NCBI GenBank assembly: GCA_050945695.1
Contig: JBMNTK010000001.1
Location: 7,729-71,728, forward strand
Length of the DNA: 64,000 bases
Reading direction: 5' to 3'
From: Anaerolineae bacterium
GTDB taxonomy: Bacteria > Chloroflexota > Anaerolineae > DRVO01
Part shown: in pieces, positions 5,056 to 59,900 of the stretch
Layout: every line of letters begins with the position of its first letter
How positions within the stretch are numbered: position 1 is the first letter of the stretch
The notes under the pieces: model-generated
Databases searched by the model: none
What the model saw: only the letters and a program-made list of their open reading frames with translations
Told to the model about the DNA's origin: nothing
Translations under genes and position numbers: made by a program

Positions 5056-5967
5056 TCACCCAACGGTGAACCGGGGCTCTCGCACTACCACCGTCCCCCC
5101 GTGCCAGTGGCTGGCGTTGGTTCCCCCGTAGCGGGTGTTATCCCCGAAGCAGAAGTGGCAAGTGCCACGCACTGCCTCGTCCTCCATGAGAACCCCGGAC
5201 GGCCGGGCCCCGCCATTGCCGCCAACACCCACCTCGGCCAGGCGGCGGTTGGCTTCACCCTCATCGAAGCGGCGCTCCATCTCCTCGACGTACATCCGGA
5301 AGAGCCGGTCGGTTGGGTCAGGGCAGCGCATAGAGACCAGCCGGCCTCCTTCTAGCTGCAGCTCTATGGGGGACGACACCAGCCCGTAGAAGACGCTCAG
5401 GTCGGCCACGATCACTCCCTCGGCCGACCCCTCCGCCGGGGCGGTGAGGACCTCGGTGAGCCCGCACAGCTGCCAGTCTCGGGAGCGGAAGGTAAGGTCG
5501 GTGCCACCGGGGGCGGTGACACGTACGGTGGTGGACTCCGGCAGGGTCTGCCGCAGGCTCTCAAGGTAAGCGCGGTCCTCTTGGGGGTCGGAGGCGTAGA
5601 TGCGCAGGAAGCTCTCTCGGGCTATGACCGTGTCAACGAAAAGGGGCGACGGGCGTACGTCGAGGCTGGGCTGGCCATCGCGCATGAGGAAGTAGCGGGC
5701 GAGGCCCTGCCGGGACCACATGGCGTGGGAGAGCAGGACTATGAGGCCGATGTTGGCGTCTGCGAATGCCTCCCTGACCGCGGGCGGCAAGTTGGGGGCA
5801 TCGTCGGGGACGAAAAGGAGCCTGGGGTGAGCGCCGCGCTCGCTCAGGCCCCGGGCCAGGGCCTCGGCTAGATCCGCCTTCTCTTGGGGGTAGACGATGG
5901 TGACCCGCTGGCCCGCCGGTGCCCGGAGGTGGTAGTCCAGGATGTTGGCGACGGCCTGCTGTATCAT
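5056..5967 (-). CDS. M29/AmpS-like aminopeptidase-family protein (short form); paralog of 36170..37135
   Basis: 303 aa; C-terminal GTCHFCFGDN...GGTNASHWH motif. Shares motif order with the protein at 36170..37135. Family assignment is tentative. Confidence 0.45.
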   Translation of the reverse strand: MIQQAVANILDYHLRAPAGQRVTIVYPQEKADLAEALARGLSERGAHPRLLFVPDDAPNLPPAVREAFADANIGLIVLLSHAMWSRQGLARYFLMRDGQPSLDVRPSPLFVDTVIARESFLRIYASDPQEDRAYLESLRQTLPESTTVRVTAPGGTDLTFRSRDWQLCGLTEVLTAPAEGSAEGVIVADLSVFYGLVSSPIELQLEGGRLVSMRCPDPTDRLFRMYVEEMERRFDEGEANRRLAEVGVGGNGGARPSGVLMEDEAVRGTCHFCFGDNTRYGGTNASHWHGGTVVVREPRFTVG

Positions 5968-5979
5968 CTCGGTGGGGAA

Positions 5980-6170
5980 GGGATATCACCGCAGAGACCG
6001 CTGAGATCGCGGAGGAAAGGAAAAACGGAAAGAGAGTCAGCAAAAGGTGAGGCGCCTGCGAATGCATGCTTCGCCTGTTCCACGGGCCAATCCCGTCCTT
6101 TCAGCCGCTCTTCCGCTCCCTTTCCTCTTCCCCTCTCTGCGCTCTCTGCGGTCTCTGCGGTGAATTCCCC
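5980..6170. mobile_element. MITE-like non-coding inverted-repeat element, copy 1 (~190 bp)
   Basis: Terminal inverted repeats gggatatcaccgcagagaccgc (5980-6001) and gcggtctctgcggtgaattcccc (6148-6170). Internal ctctgcg heptad tandem and hairpin gcgaatgcatgcttcgc. Second copy at 42144-42350. Confidence 0.6.
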
Positions 6171-6391
6171 TATATGCCTTTGAGGATGTTGCCCAGGGCG
6201 AGCACCGCGAAGGCGGCCGTGACCAGCCAGAAGGGACCGTCAGGCCCCAGGCCGACGTCCACCAGCCACGTTGCCACTCCCACCACTGCCAGCAGCAGCG
6301 ACAGATTCCAGGTTACTCGCTTGGGCGGGCTCAACTGCATCGCTGTCACCTCCCCACGTGTGTAGCGAGGGCAGGTGACAGCGATATCCAT
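6170..6391 (-). CDS. Small two-TM membrane protein (hypothetical), downstream of PspA
   Basis: 73-aa ORF (or 56 aa from MQLSPPKR) with two hydrophobic helices. No homology recognised and it overlaps the repeat element end, so low confidence. Confidence 0.3.
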   Translation of the reverse strand: MDIAVTCPRYTRGEVTAMQLSPPKRVTWNLSLLLAVVGVATWLVDVGLGPDGPFWLVTAAFAVLALGNILKGI

Positions 6392-14869: not shown

Positions 14870-15130
14870 TAGGCGGTGGGGATTGGCCACAGAGGCACGG
14901 AGACACAGAGGTGACACGTGACGAGTGACGCGTGACCGGCCACGACACCCACGCTACACGCCTGTGGGGGCGGACGACCCGGTCCGCCCTCAGGGGGCAC
15001 AACGAGTGCCAGTCCGGCGTCGGCCTTCGCCGACGCCCTGCCGAAGGCCCCTTAGCCCCGAATTCCATTCGCGAGCTCCGGCCGACCACAGATTCCTCGC
15101 TTCACTCGGAATGACAAGGAGAGGCGCTCG
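14870..15130. repeat. GC-rich mosaic REP-like repeat cluster (family B) copy
   Basis: ccacagaggcacggagacacagaggtgacacgtgac module plus hairpin gggcggacgacccggtccgccc and tcgcttcactcggaatgacaaggag module. Related copies at 19290-19460 and 59390-59900. Confidence 0.55.
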
Positions 15131-19289: not shown

Positions 19290-19460
19290 CGAGCGCATTG
19301 GCCGTCGAATCAACTCGGGGCTGTTGGGCTTTTGGCTGGGCGTCTTGCCCTCAGAGGGCGGACGGGGTCGTCCGCCCCTACCGGCGTGTGGCGTGTCACG
19401 AGTCACGTATCACCTCTGTGTCTCCGTGTCTCTGTGGCTAGTCCCCGCCTGGAGGCGGAA
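19290..19460. repeat. GC-rich mosaic REP-like repeat (family B) copy, inverted orientation
   Basis: gggcggacggggtcgtccgccc hairpin plus gtcacgagtcacgtatcacctctgtgtctccgtgtctctgtgg, the reverse complement of the 14880-14940 module. Confidence 0.55.
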
Positions 19461-22228: not shown

Positions 22229-22326
22229 TGTTTCACGTGAAACATCCACTGACCGGAGCGCCCCTCTTGGCACCCCCACGGTGACCGGGAGGGGAGCCGC
22301 GGCCAGCGCCTGTTTCACGTGAAACA
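22229..22326. promoter_or_regulatory. Two copies of a perfect 16-bp palindrome TGTTTCACGTGAAACA (22229-22244, 22311-22326), putative operator pair
   Basis: Exact identical palindromes 82 bp apart. The first is 12 bp after the UbiB stop; the second is 17 bp before the methyltransferase ATG. Confidence 0.5.
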
Positions 22327-27513: not shown

Positions 27514-28127
27514 TAGCTCACCCCTGCAGTCTAAACTGAATGTAAGAATACGGAAGCATCGCTAACAGTCAAACCGGCGACAAGGACTGGTACGGATGTG
27601 GGGCCAGCTAGAAGGTCCTCTCCCCCGGACAGCGCCATTTGGCACGGCGAAATCGCAGTCTCTCATGAGCCGAGAGGGGGAGTGTTGGGGCTAGGTCGGC
27701 CGTTCTTCCGCATCGGGGCCAAGACCACGGTGGAGTGCTCCGGACCCGGCTGCTACGGTTGCCCGAGGAAGAACGCCGATAGGCAAGAGGTGCCCCCAGG
27801 CCATCTGCTAAGAACCCAGAACCTGGGGGCGGGGGTAGCGGCCGGAGGCCGGCCGCATCAGTGAGGGCACTAGAGGTGCGGCAGTGCTGCGGGAGCTGCC
27901 TTGGCCTGCAGCCACAGGCCCACGAGTATCAGGACCCGGCCCGCCACCGCTGCTAGTGGCTTCCAGCGCTGCCCGGCGCCGGGGGCAACGGTCCGCAACC
28001 AACGCTCGCGCCGGGCTTCGGCTTCATATCGCGCCTGAGTGCGTCTTGCCAGTGCATCTAGCGCATACAGGTTGACCATAACGTCCACCTCTTACCAACT
28101 GACTCAGGGCGGCGCGCCCCGTCAGCT

Positions 28128-28727
28128 TCAGCTCTCTAGGCGGGCCTGCGCCAGCTGGCGCAGGCGTTCTTCCGTCAGGCTGGCGCCGGTCAGGTCGAGC
28201 CCGCTCAGATCGAGCCCCTGCAGGTTGGCGCCCTCCTCAATGTGGGCCCCGGTCAGGTCAGAGCTCTCCAGGGTGGCTCCCTGGAGGTTGACCCGGCGGA
28301 GCACTGCCCCGGTCAGGTCGGCGCGGTGCAGGCTGGCCTCCTGGAGGTTGGCCTCGGGCATGATCGCGCCCGTGAGGTCGGCCCCGCTGAGGTTGGCGTC
28401 CTGGGCATTGACGCGCCGGAGATCCGCCCCCGTGAGGTCCGTCCCTCGCAGGTCGGCACCCTCGAAGTTGGCGTCCCGCAGGTTGGCCCCCGTGAAGTCT
28501 GCGCCCTCGAGCCTGGCCTCGCGGAGCCGTACTCCCTTGAGGTCCGCCCCGCTGACATCTCCCAGCTCGAGCCGCCGCCTGGTTGAAGCGGGGCCGCCAC
28601 GGCCCCGCCCAAGGGTGGGATCATCGGAGCGCCGATCCCCCAGGGCCTCGAGCAGCTCCTCGGCTTCGTCGGCGGTGATCCGGCCTTCTTCGAGCATTCG
28701 CAGTATCCGCATCCGCTCTTCGTTCAC
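28128..28727 (-). CDS. Pentapeptide-repeat protein with N-terminal SHOCT-like helix (EERMRILRMLEEGRITADEAEELLEAL)
   Basis: ~25 consecutive A(D/N)LxG pentapeptides (ADLKGVRLREARLEGADFTGANLRDANFEGADLRGTDLTGADL...); RBS ggaggg before the internal GTG. Confidence 0.8.
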   Translation of the reverse strand: MNEERMRILRMLEEGRITADEAEELLEALGDRRSDDPTLGRGRGGPASTRRRLELGDVSGADLKGVRLREARLEGADFTGANLRDANFEGADLRGTDLTGADLRRVNAQDANLSGADLTGAIMPEANLQEASLHRADLTGAVLRRVNLQGATLESSDLTGAHIEEGANLQGLDLSGLDLTGASLTEERLRQLAQARLES

Positions 28728-28749
28728 GCCTGTCCCTCCACCGACCACC

Positions 28750-29817
28750 TTACTGACCCTGGTGCCTCTCCCGAAGCGCGCGCACGGTCTCTGAGTTCAG
28801 GTGCATTCCGACCAGGCTGATGTCTTGTAAGTCCAGGCCGCTCAGATCGGCCCCTTCGGTAAAGACCGTGCCCATCAGGTCCGCGTCGGTGAGGTCTGCG
28901 CCCTGCAGGTTGGCCTTGGGCAGCACTGCCCCCATGAGGTTGGCGTCGGCCAGGATGGCACCCTGGAGGTTGGCCCCGGTGAGTATGGCTCCCATCAGGT
29001 TGGCGTCGCGCAGGTCGGCCCCTTCGAGGTTGGCGCCCTCCAGTATCGCTCCATAGAGGTTGGCGTCACGGAGGTCAGCGTTGCGCAGGTTAGCGCCCTT
29101 GAGGACTGCCCCTTCCAGGTTGGCGTCCTCGAGCCTGGCCCCATCGAGGATCGCGTCCATCAGGACGGCGCCCGCGAACTGCTGGGTGTTGCCCTGCCGG
29201 CGGGCCTCCCGGTCTAGCCGGGCGGCGAGGCGCTCCAGTTCGGCGGACAGGCGACGGAGCGCGGTCTCGATCTGGGGCTGGACGTCGCGCACCGTCTGCT
29301 CGGTAGCGTCCCGCACCGACTCCACCAGGCGGTCTACCTCGTCTCCTATGCGCCGCCCCTGCTCGGAGTCAACCGCATCGTTGATCGCCCGGCTGACTTG
29401 CTCGGCCAGCCTACTGGCCTCGATCTCGAAGGCCCTCCACCTCTCCGAGCTGAAGCCTGCCCGGACGGCCTCGCTGATGCTGGCGCCCAGGTTCTCCAGC
29501 TCCTCTTCCACCTCGCCCCAGGTAGCCTCGGCCCTTTTGCTGTCCTGGGCGCCAGGGGCCTCCTGCTGCTCAGTGGTGGGCTCGGCTTCCTGGATAGGGG
29601 TGGCGACGGGCTCGGGCTCCTGCACGGAGGGAGCGATGGGCTCGACTTCCGGCATAGGGGCAGCGGCTGCCTCAGTCAGCACCTGCGCCGCCGGCTGGTC
29701 CGGCTCCTGTGACAGCAGCGGCTCCTCGTCTAGGGCCTCCAGGAGACCGTTGGCCTCCTCGGTGCTGATCCTGCCCTCTTCCAACATCCTCAATACTCTC
29801 ATGCGCTCTTCGCTCAT
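28750..29817 (-). CDS. Pentapeptide-repeat protein with N-terminal SHOCT-like helix, acidic linker and coiled coil
   Basis: Start MSEERMRVLRMLEEGRISTEEANGLLEAL (RBS gggaggga). Pro/Glu-rich linker, coiled coil, then a pentapeptide array (ANLEGAVLKGANLRNADLRDANLYGAILEGANLEGADLRDANLMGAIL...). Confidence 0.8.
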   Translation of the reverse strand: MSEERMRVLRMLEEGRISTEEANGLLEALDEEPLLSQEPDQPAAQVLTEAAAAPMPEVEPIAPSVQEPEPVATPIQEAEPTTEQQEAPGAQDSKRAEATWGEVEEELENLGASISEAVRAGFSSERWRAFEIEASRLAEQVSRAINDAVDSEQGRRIGDEVDRLVESVRDATEQTVRDVQPQIETALRRLSAELERLAARLDREARRQGNTQQFAGAVLMDAILDGARLEDANLEGAVLKGANLRNADLRDANLYGAILEGANLEGADLRDANLMGAILTGANLQGAILADANLMGAVLPKANLQGADLTDADLMGTVFTEGADLSGLDLQDISLVGMHLNSETVRALRERHQGQ

Positions 29818-29971
29818 GGTCGTCCCTCCCGTCTCGGCCACTTCCGGCCCTATCACGCCTTCGCCCTGCACTCGCGACGCGGGGCGCTCGCCAACCAGGC
29901 GCTGCCATATCCCTCGAAAAGCTGATCCGCGCGAATTCAGAACCTCTGCCGCCATGCTGGCCTCTCCTTGC

Positions 29972-34989: not shown

Positions 34990-35420
34990 GGCGGCAAGGG
35001 GGGGCAGGCGCCGGGGGCGAGGGTGTCGCTGCGGGTGAGAGTCGCCGGGGGCGAGGGTTTCGCCGGGGGCTGAACCCCCCGGCTACCTATGCGAAGCCGG
35101 CCCTTCGGCCGGCTGGTGAGGCCGTCGCAGGCACGGGATCCGCGGACAGGTGTAGGGGCGGACGGCCCCGTCCGCCCTTTGGGGCAGGCGCGGTGGCCTG
35201 CCCCTACATGGACGTTGACGGAGGCAGCAGGCGTCTCTAGGCGGCGGTCACGTCGGGGTAGGGGCGGCGCGAAGGGCGTTAGCCCGGAGCTCCGCCCGGG
35301 TTTCCTCAAATGCAGCGTGTCGAGTGTCGGCGAGGGGCGATGGGCGGGGCTTCGCCGGGCGAAAAGATGCCCGGCTTCGCTCCGCCCCTACCCGGACGTG
35401 GCCGGCCCCCGGACCCCCTC
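34990..35420. repeat. GC-rich mosaic REP-like repeat cluster (family B/C)
   Basis: Hairpins gccgggggctgaaccccccggc and gtaggggcggacggccccgtccgccc; module ggcaggcgcggtggcctgcccctac shared with 59700-59760 (reverse complement) and 49940-49975. Confidence 0.55.
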
Positions 35421-38866: not shown

Positions 38867-39178
38867 GTCACCCCCCATTCCCGGGCGCCTCGGCCGGAGC
38901 CCGGCGTCGGCGTGATTGTGCCCTAGCCTTCAGGCGGCGGCAACGGGACCCGCGCGTAGTACCGTGGTACTATGCATCCGCGCCCGATCCTGCCGATAAC
39001 TTTGGCAGGTGGGCAGGAAGAGACCCGGACATCATCCCCCCAACGCTGACCACATCTCAGCACCACTGCATCAAACACCGCAATCCCTCATCATACCGGG
39101 TCATCCTCCCACCTACGGTGTGTCAGGGCGACCGGCCTCCATTACACCTCTTCTCCCCTGTGGTCATCGAGTTCTCTG

Positions 39179-39187
39179 TGGTAGAAT
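39179..39187 (+). promoter_or_regulatory. Extended -10 element TGgTAGAAT upstream of the PLDc_N/ABC operon
   Basis: tgtggTAGAATcc ~50 nt upstream of the GTG at 39240, within a lower-GC intergenic region. Confidence 0.35.
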
Positions 39188-39239
39188 CCCCACCCCTGAT
39201 TGCTGAGCGCGGGCGGTACACTCCCGGTAGGAGGGCGTA

Positions 39240-41196: not shown

Positions 41197-42060
41197 CTAC
41201 ATGAAGATACCGATCCGGGAGGGGTACTCGGGCATTCCCTTTACCTCGGCGCGCACCCGGAACAGCGCACCGGCGCCCTCGCCTTCGTTCTCCCGGTCCT
41301 GACCGCCGGCGGTGGTGATGTAGATGTCCTTCAGGTCGTTGCCCCCGAAGGTGAGGCTGGAAACCTTCTTGGCCGGCAGCTGGATGCGCAGATCCTCTTG
41401 CCCATCAGGCGTGTACCGTACCACGCAGCCGCCATCCCACCGAGCTGACCAGACGTAGCCTTTGGAGTCCACCGTCATACCATCGGGCGCCCCTTCGCCC
41501 TCGGGCACGCGCACGAAGAGCTCTCGGTGGCTGATGGCGCCGCTCCCTACGTGATATTTGAAGCGGTAGATCTCCCGTTTGCCGGAGTCGGTGAAGTAGA
41601 AGTACTTCTGATCCGGGGAGAAGCCCATCCCGTTTGCCGTCTCCACGCCCTTGAGGACGAGCCGCAGCATTTCGTCCACGTCGAGCAGGTAGAGGCGGCC
41701 GGGCCCGGCCGGGCTCGACATAGTACCACAGAAGATCCGGCCCACCGGGTCGGCGATGACGTCGTTGAAGCGGCTCTCGCGCTCGGCGGGAATCTCATCC
41801 ACCACTGCCCTCAACCCACCGGGCCGCATTATCTTTATGGCTCCCCGCTCCATGAAGAGCACCAGGTTCCCGTCTTCTTGGATGGTGAACCCCCCTACCA
41901 CGTCACCCTGGTAGACGCACTCGTGCTGGCCGGAGGCGGGGTCGTATCGGTAGAGCTTCCCCTCGGGTATGTCGGTCCAATAGAGACGCTTTTCCCGAGG
42001 GTGCCACAGTGGGTTCTCACCACACACGCAGCGGGTGTCTGCGACGATCTCCGGTTGCAC
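41197..42060 (-). CDS. SMP-30/gluconolactonase/LRE-family beta-propeller protein
   Basis: MQPEIVADTRCVCGENPLWHPREKRLYWTDIPEGKLYRYDP...; 287 aa. Confidence 0.8.
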   Translation of the reverse strand: MQPEIVADTRCVCGENPLWHPREKRLYWTDIPEGKLYRYDPASGQHECVYQGDVVGGFTIQEDGNLVLFMERGAIKIMRPGGLRAVVDEIPAERESRFNDVIADPVGRIFCGTMSSPAGPGRLYLLDVDEMLRLVLKGVETANGMGFSPDQKYFYFTDSGKREIYRFKYHVGSGAISHRELFVRVPEGEGAPDGMTVDSKGYVWSARWDGGCVVRYTPDGQEDLRIQLPAKKVSSLTFGGNDLKDIYITTAGGQDRENEGEGAGALFRVRAEVKGMPEYPSRIGIFM

Positions 42061-42143
42061 CGTATACCTCCTATCTTGACCTCTGCCGGCACCATGGTGA
42101 GTGCCGAGCCTATTATGCCACTGAGTCGGGGCTCCGGACAGTA

Positions 42144-42350
42144 CGGGGATCTCACCGCAGAGATCGCGGAGACCGCAGAGAGAACCAACTTAACCCCCCG
42201 TGCCCGCGCCATTTGGCCACGGCCAAATGGCGGACTTCCCTGCCAGGGAAGGGGGAGCCGAACTCCCCTCTCCCACACGTGGGAGAGGGGTCGGGGGTGA
42301 GGGCCTGCCATTTCCTTCCTTTCCTCTGCGGGCTCTGCGGTGAAATCCCC
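42144..42350. mobile_element. MITE-like non-coding inverted-repeat element, copy 2 (~207 bp)
   Basis: TIRs ggggatctcaccgcagag (42144-42161) and ctctgcggtgaaatcccc (42333-42350). Internal perfect palindromes ccatttggccacggccaaatgg and cccctctcccacacgtgggagagggg; ttcc-rich tract as in copy 1. Confidence 0.6.
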
Positions 42351-42434
42351 CTAGTTGAAGCCAAGGGACGCCGGTGTTAGCATCGAGTGACTCCGCGGCC
42401 GTCTAGCGGCGGCCGTTGTCCCCCGGGGGTGTGA

Positions 42435-44318
42435 GTGAGCGAGCTCAATCAACTCCGCTTCGGTCAATCTCAGGCCCCGGCCGCCTGGCGGCCACTTCGA
42501 GCGGGCCCCTTGTCCCTCTACTTCGACCCCGCTTCCGGAGACCTCCGCTACTTGCGGCTGGGAGACCGGGAGGTGCTCCGGCGGGTCTACGTGGCCGTGC
42601 GCGACCGCGAATGGGGCACCGTGCCGCCCACCGTCACCGGCATGCACGTGGAGGAGCAGGAAGACTCCTTCTCTCTGCGCTTCCTGGTGGTGCACCACCG
42701 CGACGAGATCCGCTTCGGCTGGGCAGGCGAGGTCTCCGGCGATGCGACCGGCCGCATAGTCTATAGCATGGTGGGTCAACCGCTGGCCTCCTTCCTGACC
42801 AACCGCACCGGCATCTGCGTGCTCCACCCGGCCCAGGAGTGCGCCGGCCTGCCCTGCACTGTGGAGCATACCGACGGCTCCACCGAAGAGGGGCGCTTCC
42901 CCCTCTACATCGCCCCTCATCAGCCCTTCAAGGACATCCGTCGGCTGACCTACCCCGTGGCCCCGGGCGTGAACGCCACCATCACCTTCGAGGGTGACGT
43001 GTTCGAGATGGAGGATCAGCGCAACTGGACTGACGCCTCCTTCAAGACCTACTGCACCCCCCTGGAACTGCCCTTCCCCAAGCTCCTCCGGGCCGGGGTG
43101 CAGGTGGCCCAGACGGTGACCATCACCTTGGAGGGTCAGCCTGCCCGTCCACCGGCCCGGCCGGCTCCTTCCCGTCCGCGCTGCCTCGTGGGTGATGATC
43201 CCCTCGGGATCCTGCCTGAGATCGGCCTGGGTGTGGCCCCGGGACCGGAGACGCACGGGGAGGCTCAGATCACCCACCTGGAGGCCCTGCAACCGTCCCA
43301 TCTGCGTCAGGACTTGGAGCTGGACGGTGAGTGGGAGGAAGCCCTCTGGGATGCGGCCGGGCTGGCCCACGACACGGGAGCACCCTTGGAGCTGGCGCTC
43401 TACCTGGGAGCGCAGCCCCAGGAGCAGCTGGAGGCCGTGGCCCACTTGCTGCCGGAGCTGGACGTGCCGGTGAAGCGGGTGCTGGTCTACTACGACGAGG
43501 GCACCGAGTCCGCTGAGCATGAGCTGCTGCTGGCTCAGTTGGCCCAAGCTCGGCCGGAGACCCGGCTGGGTGGAGGTACCTACCGCTACTTCACCGAGCT
43601 CAACCGTACCCGGCCGGACCTGCGCTGGGCGGACTTCGTGTGCTACTCGCTCAGCCCCCAGGTCCACGCCTTCGACCATGTCTCCCTGGTGGAGACGCTG
43701 CCCATGCATGCCTGGACGGTGGCCTGTACCCGGCGGCTCTACACCACCTTTCCCGTGGCCGTCTCCCCCGTCACCCTGACCCCGCGCCCGAAGCGCGAAC
43801 CCGGTGCCACGGGCAGGGCTCGCCCAGCCGCTGACCCCCGTCAGCCTTCGCTCTTCACCGCTGCCTGGGTTGTGGGCAGCCTCAAGTACCTGGCCCAGGC
43901 TGGTGCCCGCAGCGTTACCTACTTCGAGACGGCTGGCCCGGCCGGGATAATGGACAGCGCCGAACCGGGCCGGGTCTATCCCGTCTACCACGTCCTGGCC
44001 GATGTCCTAGAGCACCCTGGGGCCCTCGTCCTGCCCACGCTGTCGGCGGATCCGCTGCGGGTCGAGTCCCTGGCCCTGCGCTGGAGCGACCGCACACGGG
44101 TGTTGGTGGCCAACCTGAGCCTCGAGCCGCTGGAGGTGGAGGTGAGCGGGCTTGGTCAGGTGGCCTGGGTGCGGCACCTAGATGAGACTACCGCTGAGCA
44201 GGCCCTGGGCGCCCCCGATGAGTTCCGGGCGGCCCCCTGGACCGAGCAGTCCACCCATGAGCGGACCCTGGTAGTGGCGCTGCCTGCCTGTGGGGTAGTG
44301 ACCATTGATACCTGGTAG
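42435..44318 (+). CDS. Hypothetical 627-aa protein (no recognisable motif), first gene of a sugar-modifying enzyme cluster
   Basis: Long ORF with strong GC3 bias, followed on the same strand at short spacing by Gfo/Idh/MocA, a NAD-binding protein and a sugar-phosphate isomerase. Confidence 0.6.
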   Translation: MSELNQLRFGQSQAPAAWRPLRAGPLSLYFDPASGDLRYLRLGDREVLRRVYVAVRDREWGTVPPTVTGMHVEEQEDSFSLRFLVVHHRDEIRFGWAGEVSGDATGRIVYSMVGQPLASFLTNRTGICVLHPAQECAGLPCTVEHTDGSTEEGRFPLYIAPHQPFKDIRRLTYPVAPGVNATITFEGDVFEMEDQRNWTDASFKTYCTPLELPFPKLLRAGVQVAQTVTITLEGQPARPPARPAPSRPRCLVGDDPLGILPEIGLGVAPGPETHGEAQITHLEALQPSHLRQDLELDGEWEEALWDAAGLAHDTGAPLELALYLGAQPQEQLEAVAHLLPELDVPVKRVLVYYDEGTESAEHELLLAQLAQARPETRLGGGTYRYFTELNRTRPDLRWADFVCYSLSPQVHAFDHVSLVETLPMHAWTVACTRRLYTTFPVAVSPVTLTPRPKREPGATGRARPAADPRQPSLFTAAWVVGSLKYLAQAGARSVTYFETAGPAGIMDSAEPGRVYPVYHVLADVLEHPGALVLPTLSADPLRVESLALRWSDRTRVLVANLSLEPLEVEVSGLGQVAWVRHLDETTAEQALGAPDEFRAAPWTEQSTHERTLVVALPACGVVTIDTW

Positions 44319-59389: not shown

Positions 59390-59900
59390 GTAGCCACAGA
59401 GACACGGTGACGAGTGGCACGTGACCCGTGAAGCGTGGCACGTGACCACCGCCACAACCCCATTGAGGAGTGCGCAACTAGGCGCACACTGGTGCGCCCA
59501 GGCCCCAGGCGCGCTTGGCCCATCCGGCGTCGGCGAAGGTGGGTCACGGCAAAGCAGTGACCACGTTCACAGCTCTGCTGTGAAACCTGGACGCCCGGCC
59601 GAAGGCCCAGCAGCCCCGACTTGAGTCGAGGGCTCTGCTGTCGCACTGGTGGGGGCGTGTGGCAGCGGGCGCATTAAGCCACCCACGAGGTCCGGGTAGG
59701 GGCAGGCCACCGCGCCTGCCCCCAAAGGGCGGGCGGCCCCGCCCGCCCCTACCGGCGCGCATGCCTCGGGGGAACTGTCATTCCGAGCGAAGCGAGGAAT
59801 CTCTGCCTGCCGGAAGGGGTAGATCCCTCGCTTCGCTCGGGATGACAAGGAGGTTGCGCCGGTCATGCCGAAACCATTGCGCGCCTCGGGGCGCGCACCC
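59390..59900. repeat. GC-rich mosaic REP-like repeat cluster (family B/C)
   Basis: ccacagagacacggtgacgagtggcacgtgac module (compare 14880, 19400); ggtaggggcaggccaccgcgcctgcccc (reverse complement of the 35170 module); gtcattccgagcgaagcgagg / cctcgcttcgctcgggatgacaaggag inverted pair (compare 15090). Confidence 0.55.

Follow-up and report, generated by a model that had tools for sequence, protein, structure and literature searches.

A small hairpin repeat with arms of three tandem nonamers, found twice in an Anaerolineae chromosome and shared by at least six bacterial phyla

What kind of element is represented by two short non-coding sequences with inverted ends that lie some 36 kb apart in the DNA of an Anaerolineae bacterium (Chloroflexota; Anaerolineae; DRVO01)? 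Both were noticed in a 64-kb stretch (64,000 nucleotides; assembly GCA_050945695.1, contig JBMNTK010000001.1, positions 7,729 to 71,728 of the forward strand), hereafter the window, when its letters were read without database searches. This sequence-only reading considered them to be a miniature inverted-repeat transposable element (MITE) or an element resembling repetitive extragenic palindromes (REP) or bacterial interspersed mosaic elements (BIME). We propose, with moderate confidence, that the two copies belong to a very widespread group of non-coding, extragenic, hairpin-forming interspersed repeats, here called the three-nonamer hairpin, which resemble BIMEs and REPINs (REP doublets forming hairpins) and would depend on a putative trans-acting partner. 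The family appears undescribed, as no matching paper and no precedent for such base-for-base conservation of an arm between phyla were found in the literature.

Both elements are present where they had been placed, and the terminus pattern, the inverted-repeat search and the folding agree on them. Copy 1 extends over 5980-6170 (191 nt; no strand assigned), as delimited by terminus matches, inverted repeats and fold, and copy 2 over 42145-42350 (206 nt; no strand assigned). The terminus pattern CTCTGCGGTGAAWTCCCC, with up to three mismatches, occurs at 5979-5996(-), 6153-6170(+), 42145-42162(-) and 42333-42350(+), with a weak fifth match at 39174, so that five matches stand against 0.22 expected by chance in the window. 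The fifth (39174-39191(+), CTCTGTGGTAGAATCCCC, 3 mismatches) was considered as a degenerate solo arm, but it fails the arm profile search and is unconfirmed. The inverted-repeat search pairs 5980-6014 with 6135-6169 in copy 1 (35 nt, 86% complementary) and 42142-42171 with 42324-42353 in copy 2 (30 nt, 83% complementary), and the arms of the two copies also cross-match. Folded as single-stranded DNA, copy 1 reaches -56.6 kcal/mol (z = -7.2) and copy 2 -66.5 kcal/mol (z = -6.8) relative to dinucleotide shuffles. When the two copies were aligned in both orientations, the invariant columns clustered in the arms and the interiors proved non-homologous. Open reading frames (ORFs) that cross either copy are spurious overlaps, and the elements are non-coding.

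The terminal repeats had been described as about 18-23 bp long; the arms are in fact longer, at about 35-40 bp, each with three 9-nt units in tandem. Each arm is made of three units CTC-N-GCG-NN closed by GTGAA, the element reading, from 5' to 3', TTCAC-(CGC-N-GAG-NN)x3, loop, (CTC-N-GCG-NN)x3-GTGAA. We write the unit array as (CTCTGCGGT)x3, with its closing as (CTCTGCGGT)x3GTGAA, and the degenerate hairpin form as (CTCNGCGNN)x3GTGAA. In copy 1, the left arm (5980-6018) reads GGGATA-TCACC-GCAGAG-AC-CGCTGAG-AT-CGCGGAG, that is, three CGC-N-GAG units, and the right arm (6133-6170) reads CTCTGCG-CT-CTCTGCG-GT-CTCTGCG-GTGAA-TTCCCC, with its final C shared with the stop codon of the ORF at 6170-6391(-). 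In copy 2, three units make up the left arm (42145-42186), and the right arm (42311-42350) comprises a TTCC-rich tract followed by two units and GTGAA-ATCCCC; three of the four window arms therefore contain CTCNGCGNNCTCNGCGNNCTCNGCG without mismatch. Copy 2 also encloses the two internal perfect hairpins announced earlier, which we located at 42209-42230 (CCATTTGGCC-AC-GGCCAAATGG) and at 42265-42290 (CCCCTCTCCC-ACACGT-GGGAGAGGGG, a separate palindrome module). From 79 metagenome arms, taken as the partners of the arms that had been searched for and hence unselected by the search pattern, we derived the consensus tTT-CTCtGCG-nT-CTCtGCG-nt-CTCtGCG-GTGAA, whose CTC and GCG positions show 79-100% conservation, with free N positions. 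Outside the arms, the family flanks show only T|TCACC...GGTGA|A plus a weak palindromic continuation. Two other origins of this pattern were considered and rejected: a coding constraint as the source of the 9-nt period, for which the conserved C after NN would fall on the third codon position, and a parS site split at the termini (TTCAC|GTGAA), for which flank position -3 is not G.

Both copies are intergenic, as had been said, and the description of their neighbours as convergent or divergent holds for copy 2 and fails for copy 1. The genes on either side of copy 1 are co-directional, both on the minus strand, and the element occupies the entire spacer, from the stop of a small membrane-protein ORF (6170-6391(-)), which it overlaps by 1 nt in agreement with the earlier observation, to 13 nt before the ATG of a NicX/aminopeptidase-T-like gene (5056-5967(-)). 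Copy 2 separates a divergent pair, an SGL/gluconolactonase gene (41197-42060(-)) and an apionate-lactonase-like gene (42435-44318(+)).

Among 59 unique paired elements of the family, the mode of element length is 71-82 nt (26 elements), with a tail up to 456 nt, and the compact hairpin of about 75 nt is the founder form. The length mode therefore makes the window copies, at 191 and 206 nt, expanded versions of this founder, whose interiors have acquired unrelated sequence and other small palindromes. In an AT-rich lineage (L143, L154, L155, L164, L212, L240, L245 and others), a conserved mosaic repeat of about 190 nt contains a 77-nt hairpin as its core, together with an extra small hairpin and outer arms of a different tandem unit (GGTGTCA/GGTTTCA). 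Pairs of otherwise identical hairpins of 73-77 nt (L151 and L152; L219 and L212/L245) differ by left-arm insertions of 23 nt and 39 nt, and the hairpins themselves seem to serve as landing sites for even smaller elements.

The hairpin is not specific to this genome but is common to at least six bacterial phyla: among the matches listed, it was found in Chloroflexota, Acidobacteriota, Armatimonadota, Gemmatimonadota, Planctomycetota and TA06. The scan of genome contigs used the loose pattern CTCTGCGGTGANNTCCC (15 specified bases), which returned mostly chance matches in coding DNA, and about 15 of the 116 loci listed are true members of the family, in which tandem CTCTGCG-like units run up to GGTGAA and face an inverted TTCACCGCAGAG partner across a variable interior. 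They come from named metagenome-assembled genomes (MAGs) of Armatimonadota, Gemmatimonadales, Anaerolineae, Dehalococcoidia and other Chloroflexota, and of Phycisphaeraceae, Blastocatellia, other Acidobacteriota, Candidatus Angelobacter and TA06; the Armatimonadota MAG 21I_069.bin.27 is rich in elements. The two-unit 20-mer CTCWGCGGTCTCTGCGGTGA occurs in at least 120 metagenome contigs, for which a rough estimate of chance gives about 10 or fewer. A stricter three-unit pattern (22 specified bases) matched 38 stretches in viral contigs, one of which (L261) carries portal and terminase genes together with three complete elements. A single match was found among 72,556 plasmids, a variant lacking the TTCACC/GGTGAA termini that follows metW on a Sphingopyxis plasmid and has a cultured carrier in Sphingopyxis indica MC4; the family was found neither in cultured-phage records nor in 5,426 Escherichia coli genomes. 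The motif of three CTC-N-GCG units and GTGAA is sharp enough for phylogenetic profiling and protein pull-downs.

The two window copies have different histories. The sequence-only reading had named conservation in related genomes among the observations that would count against it, and for copy 1 the corresponding spacer of related genomes does contain an element. The order PspA, small ORF, element and NicX-like gene is kept in three relatives (L127, L130 and L260), in which the neighbouring protein is 74% (L127, GCA_013178015.1) or 67% (L130 and L260) identical to that of the window and an element of the same architecture spans the spacer from stop codon to start codon. The copy 1 site is old. 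L127 shares every CTC and GCG with the window but differs from it at the N positions and throughout the interior. Across the 67% clade, each of the six units has the form CAC-N-GAG or CTC-N-GTG, which corresponds either to a concerted, pairing-preserving switch or to a replacement by the CACAGAG subfamily, also found elsewhere. The terminus extension GGGGAnn is specific to the window lineage. In an Armatimonadota MAG (L106, 1700-2010), a CGCAGAG-type element lies beside or inside a CACAGAG-type element, the two having homologous interiors and their junction falling in the middle of a short palindrome (CCGGAAC|GGTTCGG).

Copy 2, on the other hand, is missing from the orthologous divergent spacer of two relatives (L132, 74%; L133, 69%), in which the promoter-like boxes GTGGCATAAT and GATGCTARCACC found on either side of it are kept. 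A third, degenerate member lies at 15095-15232 of L117, about 160 nt beyond window position 1 and after the stop of a GerE-type response-regulator gene. The left-arm units of this member have drifted to CGCAAAG/CGCCAAG, and it is absent from L127, the one relative examined. Copy 2 and this third element are lineage-specific gains.

The interior of copy 1 is hypervariable among near-identical strains. Over 15.9 kb, contig L118 and the window share 99.5% identity, and 57 of the 81 differing alignment columns fall in the 128 bp of the copy 1 interior (6011-6138), the outer 32 nt of each arm being identical; on the left, 5979-6010 is invariant in all strains compared. A simple inversion was rejected, as the reverse complement of the interior aligns no better than the direct sequence and both scores reflect composition, and so was an A-to-G or C-to-T hypermutation, as the two interiors do not align column-wise. 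Since both alignments are equally poor, the interior was replaced rather than point-mutated. Six assemblies (L117, L118, L120, L131, L255 and L258) agree on one interior (type L) and the window has another (type W); L257 stops 5 nt into a W-type interior and L256 exactly at the arm/interior boundary. It may be that strains differ here, or that a paralogous copy caused a misassembly, although the latter would itself require a paralogue with identical arms. At copy 2, other strains have two left-arm units instead of three (a 9-nt indel) and clustered single-nucleotide polymorphisms (SNPs), two of them in the terminus, between flanks that are 100% identical. All six short-read contigs that carry the gene at 41197-42060 (L121-L126) end 114-210 nt upstream of it, inside copy 2. 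Such elements thus matter for metagenome assembly, in which short-read contigs break at them, for gene calling, in which spurious ORFs run through them, and for strain typing, since most of the differences between near-identical strains concentrate in them.

How the copies spread was examined at their boundaries and among their neighbours. Target-site duplications (TSDs) had been named as a feature to look for, and no direct repeat of 2-8 bp is enriched for any of the 14x14 combinations of boundary offset in 59 elements, both window copies included, as would suit elements whose movement leaves the target unduplicated. A search for a cognate insertion sequence (IS) had been suggested as well, and none with matching arms was seen in the window or in 630 kb of metagenome loci. 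A Pfam search of the ORFs detected no transposase, integrase or RAYT/Y1 domain (RAYT, REP-associated tyrosine transposase) among the genes of the 64-kb window. No inward-facing arms 0.6-5 kb apart around a gene were found in the 630 kb of metagenome loci, and in 362 kb of viral loci a single arm pair encloses a gene, which encodes a DNA methylase and not a transposase. This pair lies on a Mu-like phage contig with MuA-type transposase hits (L262, 1914-3525): an ORF of 485 aa for an N6/N4 DNA methylase stands between a left and a right family arm, and the roughly 25 nt that follow each arm are mutually reverse-complementary, which hints at an arm-mediated inversion or at a composite carrying cargo. 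Clustering of neighbour genes revealed no recurrent family beyond generic ABC ATPases and a cluster of unannotated large proteins. Indications of mobility or turnover come instead from the gains of copy 2 and of the third element, from adjacent, nested or tandem copies elsewhere and from carriage by phages.

Whether selection acts on a transcript or on DNA can be asked from the arms themselves. A functional RNA hairpin, whose stem-loop would terminate transcription, protect the 3' end of the upstream mRNA or bridge a stop and a start within an operon, is suggested by the strong predicted fold, by the stop-hairpin-start layout of copy 1, kept in the three relatives, and by the many metagenome copies that lie just past stop codons. 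By a crude ORF heuristic, 16 of 53 metagenome copies lie between convergent genes, 30 between co-directional and 7 between divergent ones; the convergent share is about twice the roughly 15% that would be expected. Similar roles have been proposed for REPs (PMC3733652). We nevertheless regard an RNA function as unlikely. Neither window copy has a T/U tract or a terminator call (GGTGA is followed by A, then by A or T), copy 2 lies between two divergent promoters and the seven divergent contexts are equally out of place. The window has no Rfam match at the gathering score, and the copies and five minimal elements give only sub-threshold hits to hairpins resembling microRNA precursors. On the sense strand, as inferred from flanking ORFs for 38 elements, G·T mismatches between the arms are not in excess over A·C (61 versus 57, p = 0.78). 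The variable positions show no pairing-preserving covariation: the N positions of the two arms agree no more often than by chance, and a GT spacer in one arm faces the complementary AC in its partner in 6 of 53 elements. Watson-Crick pairing of the arms amounts to 73% and is supplied by the conserved triplets themselves; the sole compensatory change is the concerted CGC->CAC with GCG->GTG in all units of one clade. A stem, moreover, offers no reason for one 7-nt motif to be kept across phyla. Taken together, the free N positions and the strand-symmetric mismatches point to sequence-specific recognition at the level of DNA, both strands alike, and not selection on an RNA stem.

Among known systems, REPs are imperfect palindromes of 20-40 bp with a GTAG or CGTC tag (PMC3733652), and REPINs are extragenic elements made of two REPs inverted around a variable spacer (bioRxiv 10.1101/2021.07.10.451892). 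The three-nonamer hairpin resembles REPINs by its inverted conserved arms, its short and highly variable spacer, its founder of about 70-100 nt, its extragenic location and the absence of TSD, and also by long persistence at orthologous sites (true of copy 1, not of copy 2), lineage-specific master sequences and slow gain. It differs from them because each REP is itself palindromic and tagged, whereas the three-nonamer arm consists of direct units, is not self-complementary and has TTCACC/GGTGAA termini; REPIN sequences vary between genera whereas this arm is the same across phyla, and no RAYT was found near the elements. With its direct-repeat arms lacking the GTAG/CGTC tag, the three-nonamer hairpin is therefore not a REP or REPIN as defined. 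The likeness to BIMEs lies in the combination of several palindromic modules into an extragenic mosaic (copy 2 holds two unrelated nested hairpins, and the AT-rich lineage has its mosaic repeat of about 190 nt) and in occurrence inside operons and at the 3' ends of genes; BIMEs, however, are built of the Y and Z motifs of enterobacterial (Enterobacteriaceae) palindromic units (PU/REP), with which we see no sequence relation. The attC sites of integrons likewise have imperfect inverted repeats with persistent mismatches, ends that are conserved and a centre that varies in length and sequence, and they act as folded single strands, but the three-nonamer hairpin has no RYYYAAC/GTTRRRY core sites, its neighbours are ordinary chromosomal genes rather than gene cassettes, and no integrase lies nearby. 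In cyanobacteria, Elhai and colleagues reportedly described in 2008 short tandemly repeated repetitive (STRR) heptamers and hairpins acting as 'hosts' of small dispersed repeats. STRRs share with our family short tandem units serving as intergenic hairpin arms and tiny secondary insertions, comparable to those of L151/L152 and L219/L212, but they are heptamers of other sequence and are not known outside cyanobacteria.

The REP/BIME-like option of the sequence-only reading therefore fits better than its MITE label, on account of the inverted arms, free spacer, lack of TSD and persistence, even though the REP palindrome and its tag are absent. Our placement of the family beside REPINs and BIMEs rests on the conserved inverted arms, the free spacer, the intergenic position of the window copies, the absence of TSD, the long residence with rare gains and the lineage-specific termini. 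We infer that the invariant CTC and GCG triplets would be the contact points of a sequence-specific trans-acting protein, which would work on DNA, either on a folded single-strand hairpin or cruciform or on the duplex array. This partner might occasionally copy the element, or install or convert a copy, without TSD, as RAYTs are thought to treat REPINs. The element would then be non-autonomous, long-lived at a given site and homogenised within a lineage, and its unconstrained interior would turn over rapidly by slippage of units, nested insertion and recombination between paralogous copies.

Several points weigh against this proposal. No partner protein was found, the window having neither transposase nor RAYT and the neighbours no informative recurrent family, and the arm pairs around genes amount to none in the metagenome loci and to the methylase alone in the viral ones. 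REPINs are normally lineage-specific and are not known to keep an arm identical, base for base, from phylum to phylum, a feature that the proposal leaves unexplained. No exact pair of empty and filled sites was recovered, so that no insertion is visible at nucleotide resolution; for copy 2, the relatives that lack it are too diverged to give an empty site at the level of bases. The replaced W interior of copy 1 is seen in the window assembly and in 5 nt of L257, against six other assemblies that agree on a different one, and the gene-context counts depend on the crude heuristic.

A bolder form of the proposal, which we advance tentatively, would make the family an undescribed selfish or domesticated DNA replicator present across many phyla. 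Its arms would be the recognition array of a widely shared or horizontally spread enzyme acting on folded single-stranded DNA without target duplication, and its loop a landing pad and recombination hot spot giving rise to local hypervariability. REP, REPIN and MITE repeats are generally regarded as specific to a lineage, and the base-for-base conservation of a 30-nt arm in Chloroflexota, Acidobacteriota, Planctomycetota and phages implies either that a conserved activity of DNA binding or processing has gone unrecognised or that an exceptionally wide-ranging mobile system exists.

Another reading is a site of the host infrastructure, in which the CTC-N-GCG arrays would bind a conserved chromosomal protein (nucleoid-associated protein, topoisomerase or repair factor) and would be kept by selection and not by transposition. 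In E. coli, BIMEs bind gyrase and IHF. Conserved triplets with free N positions, symmetric on both strands, and the positional conservation of copy 1 agree with such a site, and a conserved host protein would explain the conservation across phyla. We nonetheless hold it to be decidedly unlikely. The absence from all the E. coli genomes searched means that the binding factor cannot be universal, and the family is nearly absent from plasmids. Sites turn over between close relatives, elements are found adjacent, nested or tandemly duplicated, phage genomes carry them and some lineages have conserved interiors of their own, features which together resemble a replicating population.

A classical MITE, that is, a deletion derivative of a DDE-type IS mobilised in trans by the transposase of the latter through its terminal repeats and leaving a TSD, is in our view very improbable. 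The family shares with MITEs such as Correia and Nezha a small size, terminal inverted repeats, a lack of coding capacity, multiple copies and presence or absence between species, as for copy 2. In some other genomes (soil contigs L146, L167, L214, L229 and L244; also L106), copies from separate loci share a conserved interior, as expected of such elements. Multiple sub-terminal repeats are moreover known at the ends of some transposons, for example IS21, Mu and Tn7. The label is contradicted by the absence of a TSD at every offset, by interiors that are unrelated between the window copies and likewise between orthologous copies, and by the lack of a transposase in the window and of any cognate IS in the window or the 630 kb of metagenome loci. 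The viral arm pair, the only one to enclose a gene, brackets a methylase, and plasmids and cultured phages yield one variant match and none, respectively. Tandem-nonamer arms shared across phyla also set the family apart from Correia and Nezha elements. Finally, unlike a decaying MITE, the copy 1 site has been kept with intact consensus arms in relatives at 67-74% amino-acid identity of the neighbouring protein.

Chance similarity or an assembly artefact, to which the low-complexity sequence, the short-read contigs broken inside copy 2 and the restriction of the W-type interior to the window might point, deserves hardly any credence and is already refuted for the elements themselves (the W interior apart) by the excess of terminus matches, by fold z-scores near -7 and by the presence of the same elements in at least ten independent assemblies of the species and in hundreds of unrelated contigs.

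The surroundings of the two copies are those of an ordinary chromosome, with genes for two-component systems, ABC transporters, gltX, pspA, sugar-lactone metabolism, an ornithine/aspartate carbamoyltransferase and a DAC-domain (diadenylate cyclase) protein. The named homologues of the window proteins belong to Anaerolineae MAGs, and the proteins themselves recur unchanged in contigs of several other metagenome assemblies, one of which is labelled biogas fermenter. For a 73-aa ORF, an exact look-up is not on record and a 56-aa version was found.

Other repeats of the window are distinct from the three-nonamer hairpin. The parS consensus palindrome TGTTTCACGTGAAACA is present in two perfect copies (22229-22244 and 22311-22326), 66 nt apart within a 39-nt inverted repeat and located between an ABC1-kinase-like gene and a methyltransferase gene, an arrangement suggestive of a site for ParB loading, perhaps close to the replication origin. 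GC-rich palindromes tagged with GTAG, single or as inverted doublets, lie at 14875-15004, 19341-19449, 35152-35216, 35240-35409 and 59678-59757 (for example GTAGGGGCGGAC...GTCCGCCC and GGGGCAGGC...GCCTGCCCCTAC); they bear the classical REP/REPIN signature as defined in PMC3733652 and form a separate family. A third family of palindromic repeats, TGTCATTCCGAGCGAAGCGAGGAATC, adjoins them at 15087-15121 and 59776-59852. Finally, the dense direct repeats with periods of 15 and 30 nt at 28039-29955 are the coding repeats of a pentapeptide-repeat protein and are not intergenic.

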